From contig CALFLU010000103.1 in assembly GCA_937880125.1 (NCBI GenBank), positions 1 through 63,925 on the forward strand: a stretch of DNA of 63,925 bases, in the 5' to 3' direction. This stretch comes from an uncultured Eubacteriaceae bacterium (GTDB lineage Bacteria; Bacillota; Clostridia; Eubacteriales; UBA1433). The notes beneath the pieces were generated by a model that saw only the letters and a program-made list of their open reading frames with translations, did no database searches and was not told where the DNA came from. Below, one piece after another: positions 5,900-63,925 of the stretch (positions are counted from its first letter, which is position 1; each line of letters opens with the position of its first letter). Made by a program: the position numbers and the translations under genes.

Positions 5900-6368
5900 T
5901 TTATTATCCCTCTTTTTCTATAATTCCAATCACCGCATTATCATAACCCCATTCGGTTTTTATTTCAAGCGGCTCTTCTGTTATTTTAAAATATCAATCT
6001 TTAGTTTTTATTAAGCATTAAAATAATTTTAAAATTCTTCTCTTTTCCAATAACCAAAAACAACGCTTCAATGGCACATACATTTCACTGTACAGGCAAT
6101 GCTCTCCGCATGCACATTGAAAACCCCCTCAAGTGACCCTTGTGCCGCCTTTATTCAAGAACACCGTCATCATACTGTGTAATTTTGTATCACGCTATCC
6201 GAAAACATTCGTATAAGAATAAAGAGATTATGAAGATACTCTGCAGGGTATGTCTGCAATAAACGCTGACGCGATTCTCAATGAACCTATGAAATGAGAG
6301 CGTCCGCAATGACTGTTGCACTCTTCCCATAAAATCTTCCTATTCATGCCCTGTCTTGAGCGGGCAAG

Positions 6369-6680
6369 TCATCTTTTATGCCTTGCCATAACTGCAAGGG
6401 CAAGGCCATTCATTCCAGCGGCCAGGCCCGTCATGACAATGGCGGCGAACAAAAAACCTCCTGCTGTATCCGCAAGTGCCGACCAATCGCCGACAGCAAT
6501 TAAAAAATTTCGATAAAACATAACCAACAATAACGATATCAGGGCACACACAAAGCTGCCGAACACACAATAAATGCCCTGGGTGGTTTTTTTCTTGGCA
6601 AGCAGAAAAATTGCCGAAATCGATAATCCCCATGCCAATAAACCTAAGACGATACTCACCACATTCATACACGCATTCAT
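6369..6680 (-). CDS. small hydrophobic membrane protein, unknown function
   Basis: 103-aa ORF with 3 predicted TM helices. GGGAGGATGATAG-ATG gives a good SD. Confidence 0.55.
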   Translation of the reverse strand: MNACMNVVSIVLGLLAWGLSISAIFLLAKKKTTQGIYCVFGSFVCALISLLLVMFYRNFLIAVGDWSALADTAGGFLFAAIVMTGLAAGMNGLALAVMARHKR

Positions 6681-6800
6681 CTATCATCCTCCCATTTGTT
6701 GAGCGGTGTAAAACTTTTCTCCTGAAAATCTGATTTATCGTACTGTTAATTTTCATAAAATGCACCAAAAAAAGCTGACAAATTTCATGAAATATGTCAA

Positions 6801-6830
6801 CTTCATTTGGTGCGAGTGGCGATACAGGAC
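6801..6830. repeat. degenerate copy of the tRNA-Leu 3' end plus flank (att-like direct repeat, left copy)
   Basis: CTTCATTTGGTGCG (6801-6814) is identical to 9059-9072. It then continues AGTGGC-GATACAGGA versus GATGACAGGA in the tRNA. Confidence 0.6.
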
Positions 6831-7091
6831 TTTTTTAGAAAACGATAAAATCAATGTTTACAGGCACCAGATAGGCAGTGAATTCCTCAAATGACCCTAA
6901 TTTACAGATAGTAACGCCGTAGTTTTGAAAATCCTAGAATTTAAGTATTTTCCAAAATCCGGTCTTATTTAAATATTCACGCAAAATATAGCCTTTATCT
7001 TTCAAATATGTTGCCAAATAAGGCAAATATATCGCCAATTATATTGACACCAATAATGTCTTTAATTCGAAATACTCTTACATAATTTAAC

Positions 7092-8417
7092 CTATATACC
7101 CAAGAAAAAACTTGCGACTTCAAAATACACCAGCAAAACAAAAGTATCAACTATTGTGGTAATAAGCGGCCCCGCCATTATTGTAGGGTCTATTTTTATT
7201 TTGTCAGCAATTAAAGGCAGTATACCTCCTATGACTTTTGAAAGCACAACGGTTAGAAGCAATGTAATAGATACAGTCAGGTTTACCTGCATACTCACGC
7301 CATCTAAAATAAACATTCTAAACATATTGACAATGACGAGTGCCAATCCCGCAATTATCCCAATTTTAAATTCTTTAAAAATTACCTTGAATGACTCCCT
7401 ATAATTTACCTCACCCGAATAAAGAGCGGTTATGATTGTAGTTGACGACTGAGTGCCGGCATTACCTCCGGAATCCATCAGCATAGGTATATAGGCTGTC
7501 AAAATAACACTGGTCGCTAAAACCGCTTCATATCTCTGAATGATGAAACCCGTTAAAGTTGCAGTCAGCAGGCAAATGATCAGCCAGGTCGTCCTATCTT
7601 TCGCTATTTGAAAACTGGATTTTTCCCAATATAAATCATGAGAAGATTCGGTAATACCGTGAATATGAGCCAAATCCTCTTCATGTTCTTCATGCATGAT
7701 GTCTATCGCCCATTCGGTGGGAACAAGTCCGATCAACCTTCCTTCCGAATCGGTAACCGGAATTTCAGACAAATCGTATTTATACGCTATTTTAGCTACG
7801 ACCTCCCGGTCATCGCTTGCATATACACTTGCCGTAATCGGATATGAAATTTTTTTGATATCTTTATCCTTGTTTCTAAGAAGATCTGCCAAATAAACAT
7901 ATCCCGTAAGAATGAGCGATTCATCCGTTATCCAAATCTGTTCCAATCTATTGGCATCCAGGTCAGAGTCTAAAACTTTTTGTATAGCAACAGACGGCTC
8001 AATATTATTTTTAACAGAAAGGAAATTGACCGACATAATAGAGCCTACGCTCTCATCAGGATAACCTAATAGCTCGTTGATGATAGGGCGTCTTTCCTCA
8101 TCAATAAAATGATTCATCAGCTTTCTCACCATATTTGCGGGGAGTTCCTGAAGCGTATCGACTAATTCATCTTCATCGAGTTCCTTAATCAGAATCATTA
8201 TTTTTTCATCGGACAAGGACTCAATAATTTGAATTTTGTTTTTTTGGGGTAAAAGTGCAAATCCATCAGCCAATAAGTCCTTATCTAAAAGTTTTATACA
8301 AATAGCCAGCTCAGATTCCGACAGCTTTATAAGTTCTTCAGCTAAATCTACAGGGTTCAGATTATTAATTTTTTCCTGTAGCACTTGCAGTGCTTTTGCA
8401 TCATATCTCGTTTTCAT
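7092..8417 (-). CDS. mgtE: magnesium transporter MgtE
   Basis: The ORF has an N-terminal MgtE_N region, CBS pair and C-terminal TM domain (GNAGTQSS, PLITTIVD). ATG at 8417 follows GGAGG by 9 nt; the longer ORF start at 8438 is less likely. Confidence 0.92.
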   Translation of the reverse strand: MKTRYDAKALQVLQEKINNLNPVDLAEELIKLSESELAICIKLLDKDLLADGFALLPQKNKIQIIESLSDEKIMILIKELDEDELVDTLQELPANMVRKLMNHFIDEERRPIINELLGYPDESVGSIMSVNFLSVKNNIEPSVAIQKVLDSDLDANRLEQIWITDESLILTGYVYLADLLRNKDKDIKKISYPITASVYASDDREVVAKIAYKYDLSEIPVTDSEGRLIGLVPTEWAIDIMHEEHEEDLAHIHGITESSHDLYWEKSSFQIAKDRTTWLIICLLTATLTGFIIQRYEAVLATSVILTAYIPMLMDSGGNAGTQSSTTIITALYSGEVNYRESFKVIFKEFKIGIIAGLALVIVNMFRMFILDGVSMQVNLTVSITLLLTVVLSKVIGGILPLIADKIKIDPTIMAGPLITTIVDTFVLLVYFEVASFFLGI

Positions 8418-8448
8418 TTTTACATACCTCCTCATCAAAAACTGGGCA

Positions 8449-8488
8449 TAAAAATACCGCTCAGCTAACTTTTAGTCTAAGCGGTAAT
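8449..8488 (-). terminator. leader terminator immediately upstream of mgtE (attenuator)
   Basis: Minus strand reads UACCGCUUAG-ACUAAAAGUU-CUGAGCGGUA followed by UUUUUAU. It lies between the uORF stop and the mgtE SD. Confidence 0.7.
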
Positions 8489-8508
8489 TTAAGCATATAA
8501 AAATGAAC

Positions 8509-8619
8509 TTACCGATCCAAATGCATATTGCATGGATTTTGCAAGCTTAAAATTTTGCTCAGATTATCGCAAAGACTATTACTTACATAATTCCTACCAC
8601 TAGGGTCTCCCGAATCCAT
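8509..8619 (-). CDS. 36-codon upstream ORF in the mgtE leader (candidate leader peptide or small protein)
   Basis: AGGAGGTGA, then 5 nt, then ATG. Translation is MDSGDPSGRNYVSNSLCDNLSKILSLQNPCNMHLDR. It is below the 60-aa ORF-track cutoff, I recognise no homology, and expression is not proven. Confidence 0.35.
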   Translation of the reverse strand: MDSGDPSGRNYVSNSLCDNLSKILSLQNPCNMHLDR

Positions 8620-8662
8620 GCAATTCACCTCCTAAATTCTTAAAACTTATAACAACTATTAT

Positions 8663-8691
8663 ATTGTATCACTTAAAAATGAATAGCTCAA
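8663..8691 (-). promoter_or_regulatory. sigma-A-type promoter for the mgtE leader
   Basis: Minus strand reads TTGAGC, 17 nt, TACAAT, with TG upstream of the -10. Confidence 0.55.
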
Positions 8692-8984
8692 ATTTTGTGT
8701 CTCTTTATTACGTGGTTCAGAGTCTTGTTGATATCTGTTAATTATTATGACGTCCGCTATCATACATAGCACCGGGTAAGTTCCGGTGTATTTTGTCTTC
8801 GTCTTACATCATAATTTAGTCATATGAAGGGATATAGCTATGTATATAGAGTGTAAGATAGAAAGTAACCGTTTCGGTACAAAACAAAATGTTGATAACG
8901 GCGCTGCGGTGCTTACGCACCTCCTGCAGCGCCTGAGAGAATGACATTGCCCCAAAGGCAGAACATATACGCCTTTGGGGCTTA

Positions 8985-9043
8985 AATGAAAGAGACCCTT
9001 TCTCGGCTCACAAGCTAAGGCTTGTGGACTCGAGAAAGAGTCC
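8985..9043 (-). terminator. terminator hairpin downstream of tRNA-Leu
   Basis: A long hairpin (8994-9005 with 9031-9042, plus inner CACAAGC/GCTTGTG). On the minus strand it is followed by UCUUUCAUUU. Confidence 0.55.
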
Positions 9044-9058
9044 TTTTCATTTGCTTTT

Positions 9059-9083
9059 CTTCATTTGGTGCGGATGACAGGAG
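9059..9083. repeat. right copy of the att-like direct repeat (tRNA-Leu 3' end plus 7-nt flank)
   Basis: CTTCATTTGGTGCG-GATGACAGGAG, to be compared with 6801-6830. Confidence 0.6.
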
Positions 9084-9149
9084 TTGAACCTGCACGTCGT
9101 AGACACCAGATCCTAAGTCTGGCGCGTCTGCCAATTCCGCCACATCCGC
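9066..9149 (-). tRNA. tRNA-Leu(UAG), type II with long variable arm, encoded CCA
   Basis: Reverse complement is GCGGATGTGGCGGAATTGGCAGACGCGCCAGACTTAGGATCTGGTGTCTACGACGTGCAGGTTCAACTCCTGTCATCCGCACCA. The anticodon loop is CTTAGGA. Confidence 0.93.
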
Positions 9150-9174
9150 ATATATTGCCTGAAAAGGCTTTATC

Positions 9175-9203
9175 ATAGTAGCAAAAGAACTGTTTTTTGT
9201 CAA
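9175..9203 (-). promoter_or_regulatory. promoter for tRNA-Leu
   Basis: Minus strand reads TTGACA, 17 nt, TACTAT, about 25 nt upstream of the tRNA 5' end. Confidence 0.6.
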
Positions 9204-9216
9204 CAAAATTCCATGG

Positions 9217-9687
9217 CTAAAAGCTCCATATACGTCGGTCAAGCTGAGCATTTTCGCCTGCCATTTTTGCACCGATAATAAAAGCAACCAATAAAATACC
9301 ATGAACGGCAAGTGCTTGATAATTTTTTATGATAATCAACAAAGGCGTATCGGCCAACACAAAAAAGCACAGCCACAAAAACGCCCATCGCCGCTGCTTA
9401 TAAGCGAAAATTGCCAAAAATACCAAAACAGCCAACAACACAAAAAACAATGCAATCAACATAATACCCACACCCATCTCTTCATTGGCAACGGCACGAA
9501 ACCCATAGCTGTATAAAAGGTCAGGGATAATCACCCGCGCAAAAGCAAAATCGCGTGCCAATTTTAAGGTTGTCGAAAGCGCATTATAGGCCGTCATGGC
9601 AACAAGCACAAAGCCCGCCAAAGAAGCCAATGTAATATTTCTCGTATATTGCTTTTTCAATCTTTGATAATCGATACTACTCAGCAT
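9217..9687 (-). CDS. polytopic membrane protein, unknown function
   Basis: 156-aa ORF with 4 hydrophobic segments. It overlaps the 3' end of the upstream peptidase gene by 11 nt. Confidence 0.55.
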   Translation of the reverse strand: MLSSIDYQRLKKQYTRNITLASLAGFVLVAMTAYNALSTTLKLARDFAFARVIIPDLLYSYGFRAVANEEMGVGIMLIALFFVLLAVLVFLAIFAYKQRRWAFLWLCFFVLADTPLLIIIKNYQALAVHGILLVAFIIGAKMAGENAQLDRRIWSF

Positions 9688-10936
9688 GGATGTTTTTCCT
9701 TTGCATATAGTTTTCTATCTCGTCCGCTTGTTTTATGATCTCTTTTGTCAATACCTCGCAGCCGTCTTTTGTTACCAACACGTCATCTTCAATGCGAATG
9801 CCGATACCCAGTTGTTTTATGTACAAGCCCGGTTCAATGGTAATAATCATCCCTGCCGCCAGGGCTATGGTTTTATCCAGAGAATCATGGGCATCCAACC
9901 CCAGACTGTGGCCGATGGTATGGTAATAATAATTGCGCAACTCATCCTTTGATGTTAAAATTTCCAAATCTTTTAGACCGTTATAAAACACTTCCTGAGC
10001 ACACTGCTCAATTTCGGCAAAGCTAACACCTTCTTTGACGCAGGCAATGGCGCGTTCATTTGCCGTTAGAACAATATCGTATATTTTTCGTTGCATGTTC
10101 GTAAATTTGCCCCCGGCAGGAAACGTTCGTGTGACATCTGCACAATAATAATCCTTTGCCGCCCCAACGTCCGCAAGCACCAGCGCATCTTTTTCTATGA
10201 TGCTGTCGTTGCTGTCATAATGCAGCACCAGGCCGTTGGCGCCCGAGGCAATGATCGGCGAAAAGGACATGGTTGCATCGGCTTTGATAACTTCGTATGT
10301 AAATGCCGCCTCCAACTCTTTTTCGCTGATACCCTCGCGGCTGACACGCATCATATGCTTTATGCCCTTATTGGTCACTTCTGCCGCTTGGCGAATCAAC
10401 GCCACTTCATCCTCTTGCTTCACAGCCCGCAAAGGCATCATCATCTCACCGATGTGTTTTATTTGCAGATAAGGATATTTTTGCGACAATTCCTCGCTCA
10501 TTTTTCCCTGTGGCGAGGTATATGCTTTCCATGTCGTTGCACGCGGTGTGTTGATCCAAAGCGTTTTATGCTGATTTTTTGCCATCGCCGAAGCAAAATG
10601 ATGGTGAAATTGATCCAAATAAGCAATGTTTTCAATGCCGGACATGGCCGTCAATTCTTCTTTTGTATAGCGGTACCCTGTCCATTTTTCTTCCAATTCA
10701 TCTTTTCTGTATACAAAAAGTGTTTCTTTTACTTCTTTTTCTGTTTTCTCGACAAAATAGATAAAATCCGGCAGTTTTAATCCTGTCAAATAAAAAAAAT
10801 CTCTATCTGCTTCAAAAGCAAAATGCATATCCGCACTGGAAGCATACAGGGTATTGGCGTGCACCAGCGCAACACTGTTGTTTTCTATTTTTTCTTGAAA
10901 TTTTTGTCTGTTTCGTTTTAAAAAATCAATTTTCAC
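9677..10936 (-). CDS. M24-family Xaa-Pro aminopeptidase/dipeptidase
   Basis: 419-aa ORF with a creatinase-like N-domain and the M24 metal-ligand pattern (DVGAAKDYYCADVTRT, HTIGHSLGLDAHD, ITIEPGLY, IRIEDD). Confidence 0.85.
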   Translation of the reverse strand: MKIDFLKRNRQKFQEKIENNSVALVHANTLYASSADMHFAFEADRDFFYLTGLKLPDFIYFVEKTEKEVKETLFVYRKDELEEKWTGYRYTKEELTAMSGIENIAYLDQFHHHFASAMAKNQHKTLWINTPRATTWKAYTSPQGKMSEELSQKYPYLQIKHIGEMMMPLRAVKQEDEVALIRQAAEVTNKGIKHMMRVSREGISEKELEAAFTYEVIKADATMSFSPIIASGANGLVLHYDSNDSIIEKDALVLADVGAAKDYYCADVTRTFPAGGKFTNMQRKIYDIVLTANERAIACVKEGVSFAEIEQCAQEVFYNGLKDLEILTSKDELRNYYYHTIGHSLGLDAHDSLDKTIALAAGMIITIEPGLYIKQLGIGIRIEDDVLVTKDGCEVLTKEIIKQADEIENYMQRKNIHAE

Positions 10937-10940
10937 TTGT

Positions 10941-11567
10941 TTACTCCCAATAGTTAAAGTGTGTCAACTTTCCGTTCATCACATCATCAATGTCGATTAC
11001 TTTTAAAATTTCTCCGTCGTCTTTGTTGCACTCGGCAATCAATATACTCGCATTAGACATAATCGGACCTCTGTGCTCCTGCAATTCTTTGCCGACAATC
11101 GCAGCGGAAAGCGCCCAAATGGTCCCACCATGGGTTGTAAACAGGCAGGTGCCTTCTTGGCCGCGCATTTCATCGATATAGCGCTTTCGGTCAGCATAAA
11201 ACTCCAACCACATCTCGCCGTTGGGGTATCTGAAATCAAAAATGTTTTTTTTATATTCTTCCAGATCCACATTCAGTTTTTCAAATTCGTCAAAAGCCAC
11301 ACCTTCCATATCGCCAAAATTAATTTCGCCCAACCAGGGCATAATGTGCACATCTTGCTGCAGCTTTTTTCCCACTTCTTCTCCGATGTATTTTGACCTT
11401 AATATGGGGCTGGCATAAATGGCATCATACTCTGCCGTGCTCAAAAAATCAATCAGCGCTTGCGCCTGTTTGTGCCCGTGCTCCGTATAGGGTGAGTTTG
11501 TAACACCCACCAGTCTGTTTTCAAAATTGGCAACTGTTTGCGGGTGTCGTACCAAGATAAATCGCAT
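10941..11567 (-). CDS. histidine phosphatase family protein (phosphoglycerate-mutase-like)
   Basis: 208-aa ORF starting MRFILVRHPQT (the RHG-type catalytic motif), with a later TTHGGTI. Confidence 0.8.
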   Translation of the reverse strand: MRFILVRHPQTVANFENRLVGVTNSPYTEHGHKQAQALIDFLSTAEYDAIYASPILRSKYIGEEVGKKLQQDVHIMPWLGEINFGDMEGVAFDEFEKLNVDLEEYKKNIFDFRYPNGEMWLEFYADRKRYIDEMRGQEGTCLFTTHGGTIWALSAAIVGKELQEHRGPIMSNASILIAECNKDDGEILKVIDIDDVMNGKLTHFNYWE

Positions 11568-56780: not shown

Positions 56781-57407
56781 CTATTTTACGGTTTCTCTTA
56801 CTGTAACGACGCTGCCCTTAAAACCGGGGATTGCACCTTTTACCAGCAATACGTTTTTGTCCACGTCCACCTTAACGACTTCAAGATTTTGAACCGTAGA
56901 GCGCACCGAACCCATCTGTCCGGGCAATTTCTTGCCTTTCCACACTCTGTGGGGGGTGGTCGCCGCACTCATGGCACCTGCTTTTCTGTGATATTTTGAA
57001 CCGTGTTTCATCGGCCCTCTGCCAAAACCATGTCGCTTAATTGCGCCCTGAAAGCCTTTTCCTTTGCTGGTTCCCGTAACATCCACATAATCGCCGGCTT
57101 CAAAGATGTCCACTTTTATTTCATCTGCCAAGTTATATTCTTCGGCATTTTCAAACTTCATTTCTCTGAGCACTTTTTTAGGCTCCACGCCTGCTTTTGC
57201 ATGATGTCCTTGCTGACATTTGTTGGTTCTGTTTACTTTTTTGTCTCCGTAGCCCAACTGAACGGCGCTGTATCCGTCATTTTCCATTGTTTTGATTTGC
57301 ACAACCGTGCAAGGTCCGGCTTTGATCACCGTCACCGGCACCATGGCGCCATCTTCCGTAAACACTTGCGTCATTCCTACTTTTGTTCCGATAATTGCTT
57401 TTTTCAT
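56781..57407 (-). CDS. rplC: 50S ribosomal protein L3
   Basis: 208-aa ORF with [16 protein letters not shown] and [11 protein letters not shown]. Confidence 0.97.
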
Positions 57408-57455
57408 GTAATTAATACCTCCTGATTAGCGGATTATTTTCACAAATAATCATAA

Positions 57456-57764
57456 TTACAGTTTGACCTCAATATCCACACCCGCCGGCAAATCCAATTT
57501 CATCAATGCATCTACCGTTTTTTGCGAGGGGTTGAGTATATCAATCAATCTTTTGTGTGTGCGAATTTCAAATTGCTCACGAGAATCTTTATACTTGTGC
57601 ACCGCTCTCAAGATGGTGATGACTTCCTTTTCGGTAGGAAGCGGAATAGGACCTGATACATCTGCGTTTGTTCGTTTTGCTGTCTCTACTATTTTCTTTG
57701 CTGATTGGTCAATCAGCATGTGGTCGTAGGCTTTGAGCCTGATTCTGATTTTTTGTGTTGCCAT
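57456..57764 (-). CDS. rpsJ: 30S ribosomal protein S10
   Basis: The ATG at 57764 lies 9 nt after GGAGG. The product starts [19 protein letters not shown] and ends AGVDIEVKL. Confidence 0.97.
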
Positions 57765-58102
57765 ACTTTGTTTCCTCCTCAAACTGTTCTGCTAGTTTTC
57801 GGAGCGATTGTCCTACACGCTGCCGGGTGTTCACCCGCTTTTTTTTGACTTATTTTGTGTAGTTTTTCATTCGCCCGATTGCTTTTGCGGACATACTCCG
57901 CGGAAATTACCCGCCGCAGCGGCAACCTTCCGCATCTTCGCATAATAGTGCAGCTTAAATAAGATATAATAAATTCACTCAAAATGCAAGCTTTTTTTTA
58001 TTTTTTACGGAAAAGTAAGCAGGAAAGGCGTTTTCGCCTATCCTGCCTAACAGATTGCTTATTATTTATACCCTATTTGATAACACATTTTCAAGTTTTT
58101 TA

Positions 58103-58438
58103 TCAAATATTTTCTTTTTCCAACACATCTTTTGCCGCTTCTTGCACAGCTTTAAGCGTTGTATCATACAGCGCCAGCATGGCTTTGCCTTTTTCAGTCA
58201 GCATTGATCCTTTCGCTCCGCACCTGACAATCAACTCAAAACCCAACTGTTGCTCCGTTTTTTTCAGTGCTTTCCAGGCCTTGCTGTAAGCCATGCCCAT
58301 TTCTTTGCTCGCTTGATTTAAAGAATGGTTTTTTTCAATGCCGCGCAGCAACTGCGCCGTGCCCGGCCCAAAGGCGGCGGAAAAATCTTCAGATGCCGAC
58401 AAGCACAACCGCACGGTTGCGGATAATTTTTTTGTCAT
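58103..58438 (-). CDS. ModE-N-terminal-type winged-helix regulator without Mop (molybdate-binding) domains
   Basis: 111-aa ORF. GTAQLLRGIEKNHSLNQASKEMGMAYSKAWKALKK...LTEKGKAMLALY parallels the E. coli ModE N-domain as I remember it (...SISQGAKDAGISYKSAWDAI...LTRYGQRLIQLY). The protein ends where the di-Mop domain would begin. Confidence 0.65.
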   Translation of the reverse strand: MTKKLSATVRLCLSASEDFSAAFGPGTAQLLRGIEKNHSLNQASKEMGMAYSKAWKALKKTEQQLGFELIVRCGAKGSMLTEKGKAMLALYDTTLKAVQEAAKDVLEKENI

Positions 58439-58448
58439 ATCGCTACCG

Positions 58449-59546
58449 TCATCGACTCAGCGCATTTTTCATCAGCGCATCATACATCTCCTGCGTTAAG
58501 TCGCAGTGATAGAACAATTTGTAGTGCCGTTTTGCTTCCTGGTACAAATCATAATCAAATTCTTCGGGATACAACAACTCGCCTAACCAAGTCATACCCA
58601 TATAGCGATTGACCGAGGGCGGAAAACCCAACCAGTTATAGGGTCCAAAGGGCACTTCATAATAATTTCCGCTTTGAATGGCCTTGAGGTTTTTCCAAAC
58701 CGCATCATCCTTTACCGTGGCATAAATACTACCCGGCGCAAAAATGATATAATCCGGATTCCATTGAATAATTTGCTCCATGGACACCTCGTTGCCGTTT
58801 CCTTTGCCGCTCACATTTTCAACCACTGCCATGTTGTTGGTCATCAAGTCAATAACTTCCCCATGAAACGACCCTTTGGCAATGACGTTTTGCCCCGATA
58901 CGCCCAGGCAATACAAAATGTTTACCTTCCCCGCTTCTCCGATTTGTTCCATGGTCTTTTTGGTTCCGGAATATATTTCTTCGCAATAGGCAGACAGTGT
59001 TTTTGCTTCTTTTTTCATGCCCAACAACTCACCCAATTTTTCATAAGCAGCCGGCATTGTCTCTGTTGTGGCCTCAATAAAAATGGTCGGAATCCCCACC
59101 TGATCCATAATCTTATCCATATCTTCCACAGTCGTCGCCTTTTTTTCACCGATATCAATAATCACCTGCGGATTTGCCGCCGCCAATACCTCCAGATTCA
59201 AATCCCCCGTGGCATAAAACTGTCCGAGTACAGGAAGATCCAGATATTTTTGGTCTATGTAGAGCTCCGCATCATTCGTCCATTTTCCTGTCAAGCCTAC
59301 GAGCTTATCAGGCGCCAACGAAAAAAGCACAATCTGTGACAGTGCCCCTGAGGGCGCTATGCGTTCGATGTTTTGTGGCAAATTTACGGTTCTGCCTGCC
59401 GAGTCCACGAATGCTATCGTTTTTTCACCCGATGGATCTGTCTTTGCCTGGCAAGCGCCAAGTGGCAGCACCATTGCCACCATCAAAACAATCGTTAGAA
59501 CTATTAACCCTATCTTTTTTTTCATTCTCCTGTTCTCCTTCTTCAT
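58449..59546 (-). CDS. ABC transporter substrate-binding lipoprotein, periplasmic-binding-protein type 2 (FecB/BtuF/siderophore-like)
   Basis: 365-aa ORF with a signal peptide and lipobox LPLGAC. The pattern RIAPSG...VLAANPQVIID...WNPDYIIF is typical of chelate-type SBPs. An alternative start is at 59525. Confidence 0.8.
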   Translation of the reverse strand: MKKENRRMKKKIGLIVLTIVLMVAMVLPLGACQAKTDPSGEKTIAFVDSAGRTVNLPQNIERIAPSGALSQIVLFSLAPDKLVGLTGKWTNDAELYIDQKYLDLPVLGQFYATGDLNLEVLAAANPQVIIDIGEKKATTVEDMDKIMDQVGIPTIFIEATTETMPAAYEKLGELLGMKKEAKTLSAYCEEIYSGTKKTMEQIGEAGKVNILYCLGVSGQNVIAKGSFHGEVIDLMTNNMAVVENVSGKGNGNEVSMEQIIQWNPDYIIFAPGSIYATVKDDAVWKNLKAIQSGNYYEVPFGPYNWLGFPPSVNRYMGMTWLGELLYPEEFDYDLYQEAKRHYKLFYHCDLTQEMYDALMKNALSR

Positions 59547-59548
59547 GA

Positions 59549-60328
59549 TTATTTTTCACCTCTCTTGGGTATACAAATCTGTGTTTGCCCATCGTGGGCA
59601 CCAACCATTTCCACTTCCGCTTGATACAAACGCCGCATCAATGCTTCGTCAACCACCTCACGCGGTCTGCCGTCTGCAATTTTTTTGCCTTCTTGCAGCG
59701 CAACAACCTTGTCTGCAAACAACAACACCTCATCGATGTGGTGGGTTGTCATAAAAATACAGTATCCTTCTTTCGTCAGTTGTTTTACTTGTTCCAGCAC
59801 GCGAAAGCGATTTCCGAAATCCAAGTTTGCCGTAGCTTCATCCATGATTAATATTTTGGCTTGTTGTGCCAGCGCCCGCGCAATCAACGTCAGCTGTCGC
59901 TCTCCGCCGCTGGTTTGCATAAAGCCCCTGTCTTTCAAATGCAACAGTCCCATTTTTTCCAGTGCTTGCAGAGCAATTTTTCTTTGCTTTTCTTTCGGCG
60001 AAGAAAAATTGGGCAGGCTGGCGATGGTTCCCATAATCGTCATATCCAGTACGCTGGAATTAAACATCGGTGTATGCAGCTGCGGAATGTAGGCCATTTG
60101 TTGCGCAAGCTGTTTTGCTGAAATGTCCTTAATACTTTTGCCGTCTATACATATTTTTCCTTCATAATCCGTGAGCAATCTGAGAATACAGCGCATTAAG
60201 GTGGTTTTGCCCACACCGTTGGGCCCAATCAGGCAAGTAAATTGACCAAACTGCAGTTCAAAAGAAATGTTTTCCAATATTTTTCGTTCACCATACCGAT
60301 AAGACAGTTCCATTACTTCCAGGCTCAA
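59549..60328 (-). CDS. ABC transporter ATP-binding protein (FecE/BtuD-like)
   Basis: The TTG start at 60328 lies 7 nt after GGAGG and overlaps the permease stop (TTGA). Walker A is GPNGVGKTT, the signature is TSGGERQLTLIARAL, and Walker B is ILIMDEAT. The 332-aa ORF extension was rejected. Confidence 0.85.
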   Translation of the reverse strand: MSLEVMELSYRYGERKILENISFELQFGQFTCLIGPNGVGKTTLMRCILRLLTDYEGKICIDGKSIKDISAKQLAQQMAYIPQLHTPMFNSSVLDMTIMGTIASLPNFSSPKEKQRKIALQALEKMGLLHLKDRGFMQTSGGERQLTLIARALAQQAKILIMDEATANLDFGNRFRVLEQVKQLTKEGYCIFMTTHHIDEVLLFADKVVALQEGKKIADGRPREVVDEALMRRLYQAEVEMVGAHDGQTQICIPKRGEK

Positions 60329-61347
60329 TATTGTTCCTCCTTTCTCGTCAACAAATACATAAAGAAAGGAGCGCCGATCACCGCAGTCAATATCCCAATC
60401 GGTATTTCCGTACTCAACGCATTGCGCGAAATGTTGTCCACACAAAGCAAAAACAGTGCACCGGTTACGAGCGAAGCCGGCAGCAGATATTGATAATTGT
60501 TGCCGACCATGCGTCTGCACAAATGGGGAATCACCAACCCCACCCAACCGATTACGCCGCTGACCGATACACTGGCAGCGGTCACAAGGGTTGCACAGAG
60601 TATCACCGTTACGCGCACGGCTTTTGTGTTTACCCCCATGGTTCTCGCTTCTTCTTCGCCCATAGTGAGTGCGTTAATCTGCCAGCGAAGCAAAAACAAC
60701 GGCACAATGCCGATGAGCATAGGCAGCAGCGCAAACTTCAAGTCGTTCAAACTCGTACTTGCCAGGCTGCCCATCAACCAATAGGTAATGGACGGCAGCT
60801 GGTCGGCAGGATCCGCCACCAACTTGAGATAAGACACTCCCGCGGTAAACAGCGAGCTGACCATGATGCCCGAGAGCACCAGGCCCAAAATGCGGTTTCC
60901 TTTTGTCTTGCGACTTACCAAGAAAACAAAAGCGACTGAAATCATGCCTGATACAAAGGCACCCAGCGCAATGGCGCCTCTTTGTGCAAAAAACATAATT
61001 GCAAGAGCCGCGCCAAAAGAAGCCCCCGCAGAGGTGCCCAAAATGTCGGGAGAGGCCATGGGGTTTTGAAAAATACCCTGGTACGACGCCCCGGCAACAG
61101 CCAGCGAAGCCCCTACCAAACAGGCTAGCACAATGCGCGGCAGGCGAACGCGAAACAAAATATCTTCCGCGCTGCTGTCCCAAAACGGCTCAACAGAAAA
61201 AAATTTCGACCCCAAAATTCCTAAAATCTCTTTGATGCGAATCGGGTATCTGCCCAATCCGAGCGAGACAATAAAAGCTGCAACCAACACCGCAAGCAAT
61301 AGGAAGATGAGAAATACTTTGCGATTTTCTTTTAGTTTTCGAGTCAT
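60325..61347 (-). CDS. ABC transporter permease, FecCD/BtuC family
   Basis: A polytopic ORF with about 9-10 TM segments. RLPRIVLACLVGASLAVAGASYQGIFQNPMASPDILG is the FecCD signature region. The ATG at 61347 follows GAGGA; the extension to 61425 was rejected. Confidence 0.85.
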   Translation of the reverse strand: MTRKLKENRKVFLIFLLLAVLVAAFIVSLGLGRYPIRIKEILGILGSKFFSVEPFWDSSAEDILFRVRLPRIVLACLVGASLAVAGASYQGIFQNPMASPDILGTSAGASFGAALAIMFFAQRGAIALGAFVSGMISVAFVFLVSRKTKGNRILGLVLSGIMVSSLFTAGVSYLKLVADPADQLPSITYWLMGSLASTSLNDLKFALLPMLIGIVPLFLLRWQINALTMGEEEARTMGVNTKAVRVTVILCATLVTAASVSVSGVIGWVGLVIPHLCRRMVGNNYQYLLPASLVTGALFLLCVDNISRNALSTEIPIGILTAVIGAPFFMYLLTRKEEQY

Positions 61348-61510
61348 ACATTCCTCGTCAATCTTATTATACTCAAGCGAGAATAATACTCTGTTCATTA
61401 TACAGAAATCGTTTGCACGCGTCAACAGCTTTTTCCTGCTTTTACGGCATGCAATACAATCAAACTGTATGCTATAATGAACGCATACCGATTAAACAAG
61501 GAGCCGTAAA

Positions 61511-62035
61511 ATGACGCATCTGTTCTTGGAAGGAGACAGCCAATCAGGCAAAAGCACCCTCATTGGTCGCTGCCTCGAAAAGCTTGGCATCTGCCCCGGC
61601 GGATTTCAAACGTATTTTTGCAATAGCGACCCCTCCCAGCCCCGCGCTTTGTATATGACTGCGGCAGGGTGTCAAAAAATAAAAAACGACGACAACATCG
61701 TCGCCTTGTTACAACCCTCTCTTCCTCCCCTTGTCTATAACCGCCGATTTGATGCCCTCGGCAAAAAATATATCGAAGACAGCAAGCCATGGGCAAAACT
61801 GCTCGTCATGGACGAGTGCTCTTTTCTGGAAAAAGACGCAACCGTGTTTCAGCAAGCCGTCTTAACTGCACTGGACGAGAACATCCCCATTCTCGGCGTG
61901 TGCCGCCCCGATAAAGCCCCTTGGACAAAGGCCATCGCCGATCATCCCAATGTTCGCATTTTATCCGTCACCCGCCAAAACCGCGAAGAGATGTTTCAAC
62001 GTGCTCTTGCCCATCTGAACGGTTTGATGACATAA
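61511..62035 (+). CDS. P-loop NTPase, THEP1/DUF2478-like
   Basis: 174-aa ORF with Walker A GDSQSGKST, Walker B LLVMDECS and GGFQTYF. TGCTATAAT (61470-61478) and AAGGAG lie upstream. Confidence 0.65.
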   Translation: MTHLFLEGDSQSGKSTLIGRCLEKLGICPGGFQTYFCNSDPSQPRALYMTAAGCQKIKNDDNIVALLQPSLPPLVYNRRFDALGKKYIEDSKPWAKLLVMDECSFLEKDATVFQQAVLTALDENIPILGVCRPDKAPWTKAIADHPNVRILSVTRQNREEMFQRALAHLNGLMT

Positions 62036-62038
62036 CTT

Positions 62039-63277
62039 CTACTCTGTCATTATTTTTCTTTTCGCTGTGTAATACGGTGCATGCCGCCGCCATTTTTCGG
62101 TATGCCAATGAATTTCAATATTGACGCCCCATCCCTTCTGCAAAATCACGTATTCCAACTCTTTTTCGATTACTTCTCTGTCCGCTTTGTCCGTCAGCAC
62201 GATATCGATCGTAACCCGCTTTTCTTGCCGCGCCACGCGATAATCCAACACGCCATCCCGAGTAAAGAGAACAGCGTCTAACGGGCTCATCTCATTTGAC
62301 ACCGCCTCACGCCGCACATTTTGCAATTTTTTCAACGTGCTGCCGCAGGCGCATGCCTGCGCGCTGATTTTTCCCTTATCCCCCGTGCGATAGCGAATCA
62401 GCGGCATCGCCTCATGACAAAGCGTTGTGAGCACGATTTCTCCTTCCTGTCCATCCCGCACCCAATTTCCTTTTTCGTCTGTAATTTCAATCAGCAAGTC
62501 ATTTTCACGAATGTGCATCCCGCTTTTATCGCCGCACTCCACCGCACCGCCCAGCCCGCTTTCGCTTAAACCGTAATGTTCTATCACATGCAGAGAAAAC
62601 CGCTCGTCAAGCTCCTTTTTCAAAAACGGCGGCGCGCTGTCCGCGCTGATGAGCACCGACTTCAGCGGAAGGCTTTTACCGATTTTATCGGCATAACGCA
62701 TCAGTGACAGCATTTTAAAAGGCATGGCAACAGCGCAGTTTATTTTTTTCTCTTCCACCAAACAAGCCAGAGCATCAAAGGTTTCATCCAAAGAGCACGA
62801 AAAGACCGCAACGTTTATGCGCTCCAACGCCCGTGCAATCAATGCACCCACGCTGTGCTCAGCATTTGCAGGCATCCACACCAGACATCTGTCACCTTCA
62901 GTTGCAATTTCTCTCAGCCCGCAGGCAAAAAAGTCCACGGTTTTTTCAATATCCTCTTCCGAAAAAAACAATCGCTTTGCCTGCCCCGTGGTGGCCGACG
63001 AATACATTGTAATCACTTTTTCAACCCGACTTTGCGATAAAAGCAGCATTTGCCGGTGGTTTGCCGTCAGTTGCCTTTCGCTCAAAAGCGCAACGGCCTG
63101 CATATCCGCAAGAGAATCCATACCTCCAGGCAGATAGCTATAATACGCGCTCTTTTCCTTGACTCTTGCAAACAATGCGTTGATTTTTTTTAGCTGCATT
63201 TCCTCAATGCTCGCTCTGTTCAACTCCGCGATTTCTTCCTTTTGTTGAATCCAATTGTCTAACACAGAGCGTCTCAT
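62039..63277 (-). CDS. PaaK / coenzyme-F390-synthetase-like adenylate-forming enzyme
   Basis: 412-aa ORF with ANL-superfamily motifs YSSATTGQAKRLFFS, EHYGLSESG and IRYRTGD, at about the size of PaaK-type ligases. Its ATG overlaps the upstream radical-SAM stop (ATGA). Confidence 0.7.
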   Translation of the reverse strand: MRRSVLDNWIQQKEEIAELNRASIEEMQLKKINALFARVKEKSAYYSYLPGGMDSLADMQAVALLSERQLTANHRQMLLLSQSRVEKVITMYSSATTGQAKRLFFSEEDIEKTVDFFACGLREIATEGDRCLVWMPANAEHSVGALIARALERINVAVFSCSLDETFDALACLVEEKKINCAVAMPFKMLSLMRYADKIGKSLPLKSVLISADSAPPFLKKELDERFSLHVIEHYGLSESGLGGAVECGDKSGMHIRENDLLIEITDEKGNWVRDGQEGEIVLTTLCHEAMPLIRYRTGDKGKISAQACACGSTLKKLQNVRREAVSNEMSPLDAVLFTRDGVLDYRVARQEKRVTIDIVLTDKADREVIEKELEYVILQKGWGVNIEIHWHTEKWRRHAPYYTAKRKIMTE

Positions 63278-63925
63278 TTTGCCGCCCCGCTGTTTCGATA
63301 CAGCGCTTTGCCGTTAAGTGCCGTCAAATTATACGCGCAGAAAGGAATGATTTTCTCCCCTGATGCCACACCCACCTTGCACTGTCTCAGTCGGTTTAAA
63401 TCCAGCGAATAGACATCTTGAAAAAACATCGCCGATATCATGAGTTTGTGCGTACTGCTGCGCTTTAAAAATGCATCTAAGGAGGCAAAGGCCTCGCTGT
63501 CATCGTCCTCTTTGCCTTGGTTCTCTTCGCTTGCCGACCACTGTTTTGCCACATATTTTCGCGATTTTTCAATGGTGGCATCACAGCAATTCCCTTTTTC
63601 TTTTTCCGCGGAGACGACCGTACCGTTTTCCATGATTACCACCGAGGCAAGCAGGGAGCAATAGGCGCTTTCCGCACCGCCCCCGGCAAAATATTCTTGC
63701 CTGATAAGCCCCCCTGTCTGTTTTTCTATTTCTCGCATAAGAAAGGGCAGTGTCAGCGGCCTGTCTGTCAAATTTTTCGGATAACGCCCAAAAAGACTCA
63801 CGGGCTGAAAGTGCACGCCCCTCACCGCAGGCATATGCTTTATCGCATAGTCGATAATATCGCCGATTTGATGATGGTTCACCCCGTAGACCAGCGTGGG
63901 CACCAGCACCACGCCCAGCCCGGCC
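63274..63925 (-). CDS. C-terminal part of a radical-SAM-type enzyme (N-terminus beyond the window)
   Basis: The reading frame is open to the window edge. GVNHHQIGDIIDYAIKHMPAVRGVHFQPVSLFGRYP and terminal ISAMFFQDVYSLDLNRLRQCKV...IPFCAYN resemble the C-terminal halves of Tes/MJ0619-type radical SAM proteins as I remember them. The CxxxCxxC cluster itself is not in the window. Confidence 0.5.
   Translation of the reverse strand, partial: AGLGVVLVPTLVYGVNHHQIGDIIDYAIKHMPAVRGVHFQPVSLFGRYPKNLTDRPLTLPFLMREIEKQTGGLIRQEYFAGGGAESAYCSLLASVVIMENGTVVSAEKEKGNCCDATIEKSRKYVAKQWSASEENQGKEDDDSEAFASLDAFLKRSSTHKLMISAMFFQDVYSLDLNRLRQCKVGVASGEKIIPFCAYNLTALNGKALYRNSGAAK

Follow-up and report, generated by a model that had tools for sequence, protein, structure and literature searches.

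Three genes at the end of the contig

We analysed a 63,925-bp stretch of DNA (the window) from an uncultured Eubacteriaceae bacterium (GCA_937880125.1, contig CALFLU010000103.1), focusing on three genes at its distal end: the C-terminal half of a TrsS-family enzyme of the radical S-adenosylmethionine (SAM) type, an adenylate-forming ligase of the DVU_1553 family and a small P-loop NTPase. The window is the complete public NCBI contig, and the copy held at ENA (L001) ends at the identical point. Judged by profile matches and by gene order in relatives, these three open reading frames (ORFs) are the downstream end of a conserved ~10-kb cluster beside a molybdopterin aldehyde oxidoreductase of the Desulfovibrio gigas type (MOP), and of this identity and context we are close to certain.

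The radical SAM ORF occupies positions 63274-63925 on the minus strand and is open at the window edge, with 216 codons followed by a TGA at 63274-63276. The ligase ORF (62039-63277, minus strand, 412 amino acids) begins with an ATG at 63277-63275. The plus-strand letters TCAT at 63274-63277 read ATGA on the minus strand, the stop of the first gene and the start of the second sharing 4 nt, an overlap that would couple their translation. The NTPase ORF (61511-62035, plus strand, 174 amino acids) converges on the ligase gene, and 3 bp (62036-62038) separate the two stops; the opposing coding regions themselves contain weak terminator-like hairpins (62075-62089, plus strand; 61707-61683, minus strand, 11 pairs). 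Because they match established profiles (NF045646, NF045666, Pfam AMP-binding and PF03266), the three are not chance ORFs. A first-pass annotation, made from the letters alone, had placed the ORFs, the overlap, the motifs that it quoted and the 3-bp gap just as our re-reading does. The profile matches also bear out its family calls: a Tes or 'HMPTM'-type radical SAM C-terminus, a PaaK/F390-like ligase and a THEP1-type NTPase. Its remark that no terminator separates ligase and NTPase is trivially true of so short a gap. Its statement that the radical SAM ORF ends in IPFCAYN was right about the motif and wrong about the ending, as 17 further residues precede the stop (...IPFCAYNLTALNGKALYRNSGAAK).

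A conserved cluster beside a molybdoenzyme

Relatives of the ligase were collected in a one-genome-per-species scan that gave 528 confirmed matches, of which the best 80 were retained (80 species from at least six phyla). The neighbourhood survey covered 85 related loci, on which cluster proteins were placed by tblastn, and gene-presence counts were restricted to the 51 species loci whose sequence extends 9 kb or more upstream of the ligase.

Two relatives carry the genes that the window edge cuts off. In L086, the ligase falls in the same 90% cluster as ours and the DNA is 87% identical to the window across 11.9 kb; L003, a lineage of Eubacteriaceae metagenome-assembled genomes, has a ligase of 68% identity. 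Both adjoin the same S10 ribosomal-protein operon, and both read, in order: a Mo-hydroxylase of 907-908 amino acids, a 752-residue FeS/CCG (iron–sulfur) oxidoreductase, a 73-residue DUF7479 protein, a methyltransferase, a C_GCAxxG_C_C protein, a nucleoside triphosphate (NTP) transferase, TrsS (449-451 residues), the ligase, the convergent NTPase, a FecCD permease, an ABC ATPase, a Peripla_BP_2 protein, a helix-turn-helix (HTH) regulator and rpsJ. The full cluster thus stands directly upstream of TrsS, as was anticipated when most of the system was placed past 63925, and the association with molybdenum-cofactor (Moco) genes, raised in the first-pass annotation, is real in both neighbourhoods. 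All eight L003 cluster proteins match the corresponding NCBIfam models one for one; besides TrsS and the ligase, these are NF045668 (molybdopterin-dependent aldehyde oxidoreductase, 1625 bits), NF045663 (923 bits), NF045645 (DVU_1557, 87 bits), NF045667 (DVU_1556, 158 bits), NF045669 (DVU_1555, 153 bits) and NF045665 (DVU_1551, 217 bits, N-terminal half only). In literature mentions, DVU_1559 is the Desulfovibrio vulgaris aldehyde oxidoreductase.

Across the loci, the order is near-invariant: MOP, an NAD(P)/FeS/CCG oxidoreductase (DIC), the four-Cys protein DVU_1557, the methyltransferase DVU_1556, the C-GCAxxG-C-C protein DVU_1555, then a MocA-like NTP transferase, with a cysteine desulfurase or p92 as further occupants of this position, followed by TrsS and the DVU_1553 ligase and, in part of the loci, by XdhC and an NTP transferase. 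The DVU_1555-type gene is present in all 51 loci, DVU_1557 and TrsS in 50 each, DIC in 49, MOP in 48 and the methyltransferase in 47. The same order occurs in Bacillota, Desulfobacterota, Campylobacterota, Chloroflexota, Acidobacteriota and Actinomycetota. Hosts among the best 80 matches include Oscillospiraceae, Lachnospiraceae, Acetobacterium, Clostridium tyrobutyricum, Desulfosporosinus, Syntrophomonadaceae and Veillonellaceae, together with Desulfobacterota, Sulfurospirillum, Anaerolineaceae, Acidobacteriaceae and Actinomycetes. TrsS and the ligase each comprise thousands of protein clusters. No tandem duplicates of the structural genes were found within the flanks beside a single TrsS–ligase pair.

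The 4-nt overlap between TrsS and ligase recurs in at least 35 of 72 loci from several phyla, and most of the others have a gap of less than 40 nt. The radical SAM enzyme, ligase and NTPase had been taken as one set, yet the NTPase is found in 2 of the 51 loci against 50 for TrsS. From conserved presence and overlap, it is therefore the radical SAM–ligase pair that forms a core co-translated module, and not the trio.

Nor is the pathway undescribed, as had been supposed. The neighbourhood is already curated in NCBIfam, each core gene having an equivalog or exception model, and the window holds an ordinary copy of it, cut at the edge. GenBank already carries the TrsS name, credited by a 2026 review to Haft and Tolstoy (mSystems 2025). 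A preprint by Haft from 2022 on SAO, considered as a source, deals with another transporter at another locus.

TrsS has the fold and metal sites of tetraether lipid synthase

The edge ORF matches NF045646 (radical SAM (seleno)protein TrsS) with 244 bits (E 2e-72) over positions 226-441 of the 441-position model; the cut-off is 490 bits and the gene is cut by the edge. The second-best family is tetraether lipid synthase, Tes. By this match, and by 213 of 216 residues identical to the C-terminus of the full-length, 449-residue TrsS of L086, the edge ORF is the C-terminal half of TrsS. The N-terminal ~233 residues, including the radical SAM motif CxxxCxxC, lie past the window edge. The first-pass assignment had been made to depend on such a core, which reads CNLQCPVC in the L086 orthologue and CNLYCPVC in L003, whose full-length TrsS scores 563.6 bits, above the cut-off.

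To define the conserved residues, we aligned 62 family members. CxxxCxxC is invariant (C104/C108/C111), as are three further sets, C14/C17/C38/H41, C79/C83/C86/H89 and C322/M401/C417/C431; the window fragment retains the last of these as C89, M166, C182 and C196. The L003 protein matches the solved Tes, GDGT-MAS (PDB 7TOL), over residues 9-312 and 391-435 (phmmer E 2e-81). An AlphaFold2 model of L086 TrsS superposes on 7TOL with a template-modelling (TM) score of 0.78 at 32% identity, the next fold being MoaA with 0.41. Tes has four metal sites: 3Cys+His for a rubredoxin-like Fe, another 3Cys+His for an N-terminal cluster, CX3CX2C for the radical SAM cluster and 3Cys+Met for a C-terminal cluster, the last of which traps the first substrate radical as a sulfur adduct (PMC13459092). 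TrsS is modelled with the Tes fold and has all four ligand sets, which makes it most likely a Tes-type catalyst that functionalises an unactivated C–H bond. About 120 residues of Tes (329-448) remain unaligned, so the substrate region of TrsS differs.

Although the family name allows for selenoproteins, the window copy is the Cys form. There is no in-frame TGA in the fragment and no internal TGA within the TrsS matches of 63 aligned loci; the stop symbol at TrsS query positions 446-448 is the genuine stop overlapping the ligase start. Selenocysteine was therefore rejected here.

Two side observations concern TrsS. A CC or CCC motif in a variable loop (C113 and C114 of the fragment, GNCCDAT; residues 346-347 in L003) is 82-85% conserved and is missing from a gut Lachnospiraceae group (L004, L006, L011, L013, L018 and L051), so it is not a universal catalytic site. 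In L002, a 2.1-kb contig from the Joint Genome Institute with an identical ligase, the TrsS frame (2-734) was called as two overlapping ORFs of 168 and 91 amino acids in different frames, which probably reflects a frameshift or faulty assembly.

The ligase is a complete PaaK-fold enzyme

Over model positions 2-329 of 331, the ligase matches NF045666 ('DVU_1553 family AMP-dependent CoA ligase') with 351.8 bits (E 3e-105), where the cut-off is 300, and so carries the very RefSeq name that had been suggested; the match to Pfam AMP-binding has an E value of 5e-13. Its motifs are SSATTGQAKR, HYGLSESG, RYRTGD and a C-terminal AKRK. S94, T96, G98, K101, R102, the HYG..E residues, R295, Y296, T298, D300, K406 and R407 are invariant in the family alignment, and the A10 lysine is retained. 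The P-loop had been called degenerate. In part, its wording is a trait of the whole family, (T/S)SGTTGxAKR without the usual Pro, and in part a trait of this lineage, the change from Gly to Ala.

The AlphaFold2 model of the ligase (predicted local distance difference test score 88.5) finds PaaK1 (2Y27) as its best Foldseek match, with a TM score of 0.76-0.77 over the full length at ~20% identity, and it also superposes on BT_0428 across the whole length. As modelled, the ligase is a complete PaaK-fold adenylate-forming enzyme, and its 90 C-terminal residues, missed by the profiles, are therefore the normal small ANL domain. A CoA (coenzyme A)-ligase function is predicted for the DVU_1553 family by name and fold. 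Some PaaK-fold relatives, namely NatL2 (6SIW), AjiA1 (6WUQ) and ClxA (9S3L), are deposited as AMP-ligases, and these are not known to use CoA. We also considered the ligase as an adenylator of a small sulfur-carrier protein, and rejected this, as neither DVU_1557 nor p92 has a GG tail.

The convergent NTPase and the neighbouring importer

The NTPase passes PF03266 (NTPase_1; 66.8 bits, E 3e-18, cut-off 23.9) and has Walker A and B motifs, GDSQSGKST and LLVMDE. Of the earlier label 'THEP1/DUF2478-like', the first half stands, while DUF2478 gave no match at E <= 0.01. The NCBIfam equivalog PRK13695 is not reached (42 bits, cut-off 156), and the match to PDB 1YE8 (AQ_1292) has an E value of 5e-4. 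Besides L003, L086, L079 and L080, no surveyed locus contains such a gene.

Beyond the NTPase, on the minus strand, lie the genes of an importer and a regulator. The FecCD-family permease (60325-61347; PF01032, E 1e-92) probably begins with the ATG at 61347, where the start is placed in the gene calls of L003 and L086; it is a called gene in L001 as well. A sigma70-like promoter, TTGACG-17-TATAAT (61397-61425, minus strand), identified by consensus match only (11 of 12 positions), falls within the TTG-extended version of this ORF (60325-61425). Next come the ABC ATPase (59549-60328; PF00005, E 3e-31; a 259-residue gene call in L001), the substrate-binding lipoprotein (58449-59525; Peripla_BP_2, PF01497) and a regulator of 111 residues with an HTH domain like the N-terminus of ModE (58103-58438; PF00126). 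The regulator scores 47.6 bits against TIGR00637 (cut-off 98.5) and has no molbindin domain; homologous HTH genes adjoin the ligase or ModABC in 13-18 other loci. From the promoter-like site and the probable start at 61347, the importer and regulator look like a transcription unit of their own, divergent from the NTPase gene.

In PDB, the binding protein matches 4PAG, 4OVK and 4HN9 and then, in fourth place, MolA (3PSA), with an E value of 3e-10 along 98 residues; MolA binds molybdate/tungstate for a type II importer. Binding proteins of the same subfamily, 33-46% identical, adjoin the cluster in Faecousia (L008, 257-1261) and in Acidobacteria (L070, 14558-15631; L072, 15284-16357), and ModABC occupies the position of the FecCD-type importer in other lineages. 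FecCD is found in 2 and ModA in 5 of the 51 loci. Homology and position together suggest that the importer probably supplies molybdenum (Mo) or tungsten (W), and that the binding protein may import Mo or W rather than a chelate. 'Metallophore modification', part of the pathway proposed in the first-pass annotation, found no support: the importer stands in the place of ModABC, and its binding protein has MolA as its nearest characterised PDB relative.

The NTPase, the FecCD-type importer and the ModE-like regulator that goes with it are, in our reading, lineage-specific additions to the cluster. That the NTPase, and perhaps the importer, is merely adjacent, with no functional link to TrsS and the ligase, has odds only somewhat short of even. 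The NTPase is as rare as FecCD among the 51 loci and stands on the opposite strand, and the importer has its own promoter-like site; only three NTPase homologues were found in an index of 5.8 billion proteins, and the one in a differing context (L087) is uninformative. Against mere adjacency, the arrangement is retained in L086 and L003 as in the window, across lineages with 68%-identical ligases. A 29%-identical NTPase_1 homologue also follows XdhC on the same strand in L079 and L080, and the binding-protein subfamily sits by the cluster in Faecousia and Acidobacteria.

On the far side of the regulator, an S10-Clostridia ribosomal-protein leader (RF03136, 57871-57946, minus strand, 39 bits, E 2e-5) stands upstream of rpsJ (57456-57764), and L003 and L086 share it. 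In this lineage, the S10 operon is thus the direct neighbour of the accessory cluster and importer. A Moco riboswitch was found neither in positions 57000-63925 of the window nor in L003, L004, L008, L072 or L086. In the Faecousia locus, a purine riboswitch (RF00167, 45.7 bits; L008, 4733-4830, plus strand) was found immediately downstream of the ligase; we rejected it as a part of the cluster, because the genes that come after it, one for a small membrane protein and one uridine-kinase-like, are apparently unrelated. PADLOC gave no hits that would link the window to defence systems.

Proposed function of the TrsS–ligase pair

We propose that TrsS and the ligase form a coupled module for adenylation and radical C–H functionalisation in the service of the molybdoenzyme, a reading to which we assign a probability of roughly 0.55. 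The mode of action set out here is tentative, with a chance a little under one half. Owing to the ATGA overlap, the two proteins would be co-produced, and as partners they would work on a single small molecule that bears a carboxylate. The ligase would form an acyl-adenylate and hand the acyl group to a thiol, either that of CoA or one in the Cys-rich DVU_1555 protein. TrsS would take a hydrogen from an unactivated carbon and make a C–C or C–S bond by way of its C-terminal auxiliary cluster, as Tes does. The product of the pair would serve the molybdoenzyme as a cofactor or ligand, in an activation step or as a dedicated co-substrate, rather than feed a catabolic route.

A role in the service of the molybdoenzyme is suggested because the pair is embedded among genes of Moco maturation (MocA-like, XdhC and cysteine desulfurase) and because it stays with those genes when MOP, or MOP and DIC, are elsewhere. 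In L017 and L081, all cluster genes but MOP stay together. In L068 (Syntrophomonadaceae, 6214-11227), the DVU_1555-type gene, methyltransferase, XdhC, TrsS, ligase and MocA/HD gene form one group, with no MOP or DIC within 10 kb. Moreover, no conserved downstream acyl-CoA enzymes were found in the 85 related loci. At the cluster edge, importers of the ModABC or FecCD/Peripla_BP_2 type and ModE-like HTH genes recur.

Several observations weigh against this proposal. For DVU_1551-1557 and TrsS, the literature yielded no experiment, only a table in a selenoproteome review and DVU_1559 as 'aldehyde oxidoreductase'. For the D. gigas enzyme, after decades of crystallography, a review mentions no extra prosthetic group, and the enzyme is active even without its sulfido ligand (PMC10223205); a modification of the pterin or of a ligand would thus have to be lost in purification. 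In six loci (L026, L028, L033, L038, L046 and L052), the ligase immediately follows the DVU_1555 gene and the locus contains no TrsS, so the pair is not obligatory in cis; these six are Oscillospiraceae, Ruminococcaceae and Limivicinus-type. Finally, L068 has a family-III CoA-transferase and an enoyl-CoA hydratase between TrsS and ligase, which fits ordinary CoA-thioester metabolism.

A more specific form of the proposal is that TrsS, the ligase, the DVU_1556 methyltransferase and DVU_1555 jointly assemble or mend a labile, so far unseen component of MOP, be it a prosthetic group, a ligand or an organometallic intermediate, which aerobic purification of the classical enzyme could have removed. 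We put this forward by analogy and consider it rather improbable.

The L068 arrangement also favours an alternative in which the cluster would be a substrate pathway. MOP would oxidise a specific aldehyde to an acid, the ligase would convert that acid or a precursor to its acyl-CoA, TrsS and the methyltransferase would remodel the carbon skeleton, and DIC and DVU_1557 would carry electrons. PaaK-family enzymes usually yield CoA thioesters, and the nearest solved structures, PaaK1 and BT_0428, belong to them; the carboxyl O-methyltransferase BioC is among the next-best matches of the methyltransferase. In Clostridium ljungdahlii, the MOP–DIC–4Cys–CGC genes have been described as a redox module, one that is upregulated during growth on syngas or H2/CO2 (PMC5640608). 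Against this, neither the acyl-CoA enzymes that such a route would need downstream nor an organic-substrate transporter is conserved in other loci, TrsS and ligase keep to the maturation genes even when MOP is elsewhere, and the AMP-ligases among the PaaK-fold relatives do not point to CoA. We consider the substrate pathway unlikely, and less probable than the module proposed above.

It is very improbable that TrsS is a bacterial tetraether or membrane-spanning lipid synthase for which the ligase activates the coupled fatty acids. In structure, TrsS is homologous to GDGT-MAS along its full length and keeps every metal site, and bacterial Tes homologues have been proposed to make brGDGTs (branched glycerol dialkyl glycerol tetraethers; PMC8941075). 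The Tes model NF045702 (cut-off 450 bits) is, however, reached neither by the fragment (119 bits) nor by full-length L003 TrsS (339 bits), and the unaligned part of Tes has no counterpart in the sequence match. TrsS also sits within the molybdoenzyme cluster in 50 of 51 loci, gut Clostridia included, and Tes homologues occur in only 3 of 14 Acidobacteria that produce iso-diabolic acid (PMC13159169).

That the ligase is a phenylacetate-CoA ligase of aromatic catabolism, as its PaaK-like fold and GenBank names such as 'phenylacetate--CoA ligase family protein' for members of its cluster might suggest, is effectively refuted by scores of 78 and 118 bits against the PaaK equivalogs TIGR02155 and NF041878 (cut-offs 646 and 700), set against 352 for a cut-off of 300 in NF045666, by ~20% identity to solved PaaKs and by neighbours from the MOP cluster in the 85 related loci, none of which is built around paa genes. 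The gene set is neither a paa pathway nor a lipid synthase.

Implications

The cluster, which occurs in anaerobic bacteria, abundant gut Clostridia included, is among the more widespread of the functionally uncharacterised conserved gene sets. Its molybdoenzyme operon brings an adenylating enzyme together with a Tes-like radical SAM enzyme, of a kind whose only other known role is to join inert lipid tails. Solving the role of the pair could revise the view of how MOP-type aldehyde oxidoreductases mature or of their in vivo substrates, and would give the C-GCAxxG-C-C family a function.

It would also tell which of the 'bacterial Tes homologues' palaeoclimate-proxy genomics ought to leave out when brGDGT synthases are counted. 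With BLASTP (e < 1e-50), Zeng et al. gathered 456 such homologues, taken as candidates for brGDGT synthesis, and they cite a 32%-identical hit in Edaphobacter (PMC8941075). In Acidobacteriaceae (L070, L072 and L078; Terracidiphilus), we find TrsS inside the molybdoenzyme cluster. TrsS would probably pass a threshold of the e < 1e-50 type, its E value of 2e-81 having been obtained against Methanocaldococcus jannaschii Tes and the query of Zeng et al. being MA_1486. Together, the score and the presence in Acidobacteriaceae suggest that part of that homologue set may be TrsS. Were TrsS to serve a labile MOP prosthetic group, many of the homologues used to mark brGDGT producers would be a molybdoenzyme-linked clade.

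Comparison with known systems

The closest described counterpart is the NCBIfam DVU_1551-1557/TrsS neighbourhood (NF045645, NF045646, NF045663 and NF045665-NF045669), every other member of which is carried, in canonical order, by the relative whose TrsS C-terminus is near-identical. The window lineage departs from it in several ways: its MocA-like transferase is short and lacks the HD domain, XdhC and cysteine desulfurase are missing from the cluster, a convergent THEP1-type NTPase is added, and ModABC is replaced by a FecCD-type importer with its ModE-N-like regulator. Its TrsS is the Cys and not the Sec (selenocysteine) form of the (seleno)protein family.

With Tes/GDGT-MAS (7TOL), TrsS has in common the rubredoxin-like site, the N-terminal cluster motif CPYDCGxCxxH, the radical SAM CX3CX2C and the C-terminal 3Cys+Met set including IPFC(A/T)YN. 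Unlike archaeal Tes, it is bacterial, lies in a molybdoenzyme operon and is translationally coupled, as the overlap indicates, to an adenylating enzyme. The ligase has the two-domain fold and the A3, A5, A8 and A10 motifs of PaaK-family enzymes (PaaK1, 2Y27; BT_0428, 4R1L), and the CxCG motif of BT_0428; it differs from them in its A3 loop, (T/S)S(G/A)TTGxAKR without the usual Pro, in its low identity of ~20% and in having no paa context. The NTPase resembles THEP1/AQ_1292 (PF03266, 1YE8) in Walker A and B motifs, size and full-length match, but is very divergent and narrow in its distribution over lineages. For the importer, the nearest characterised PDB relative of the binding protein, MolA, belongs to the MolBC-A type II molybdate/tungstate importers.

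In many loci, TrsS and the ligase are flanked by genes known from the maturation of xanthine-oxidase-family enzymes (XdhC, MocA and cysteine desulfurase). Past the MoaA step, this maturation is not known to require an ANL ligase or a radical SAM enzyme. A comparable combination is used by the Hcg pathway for the iron-guanylylpyridinol (FeGP) cofactor of [Fe]-hydrogenase, which draws on a radical SAM enzyme as well as on a methyltransferase, on a nucleotidyl transferase and on an adenylating enzyme from which an acyl group passes to a thiol. The logic of the proposed MOP prosthetic-group module would, by analogy, resemble that of Hcg.

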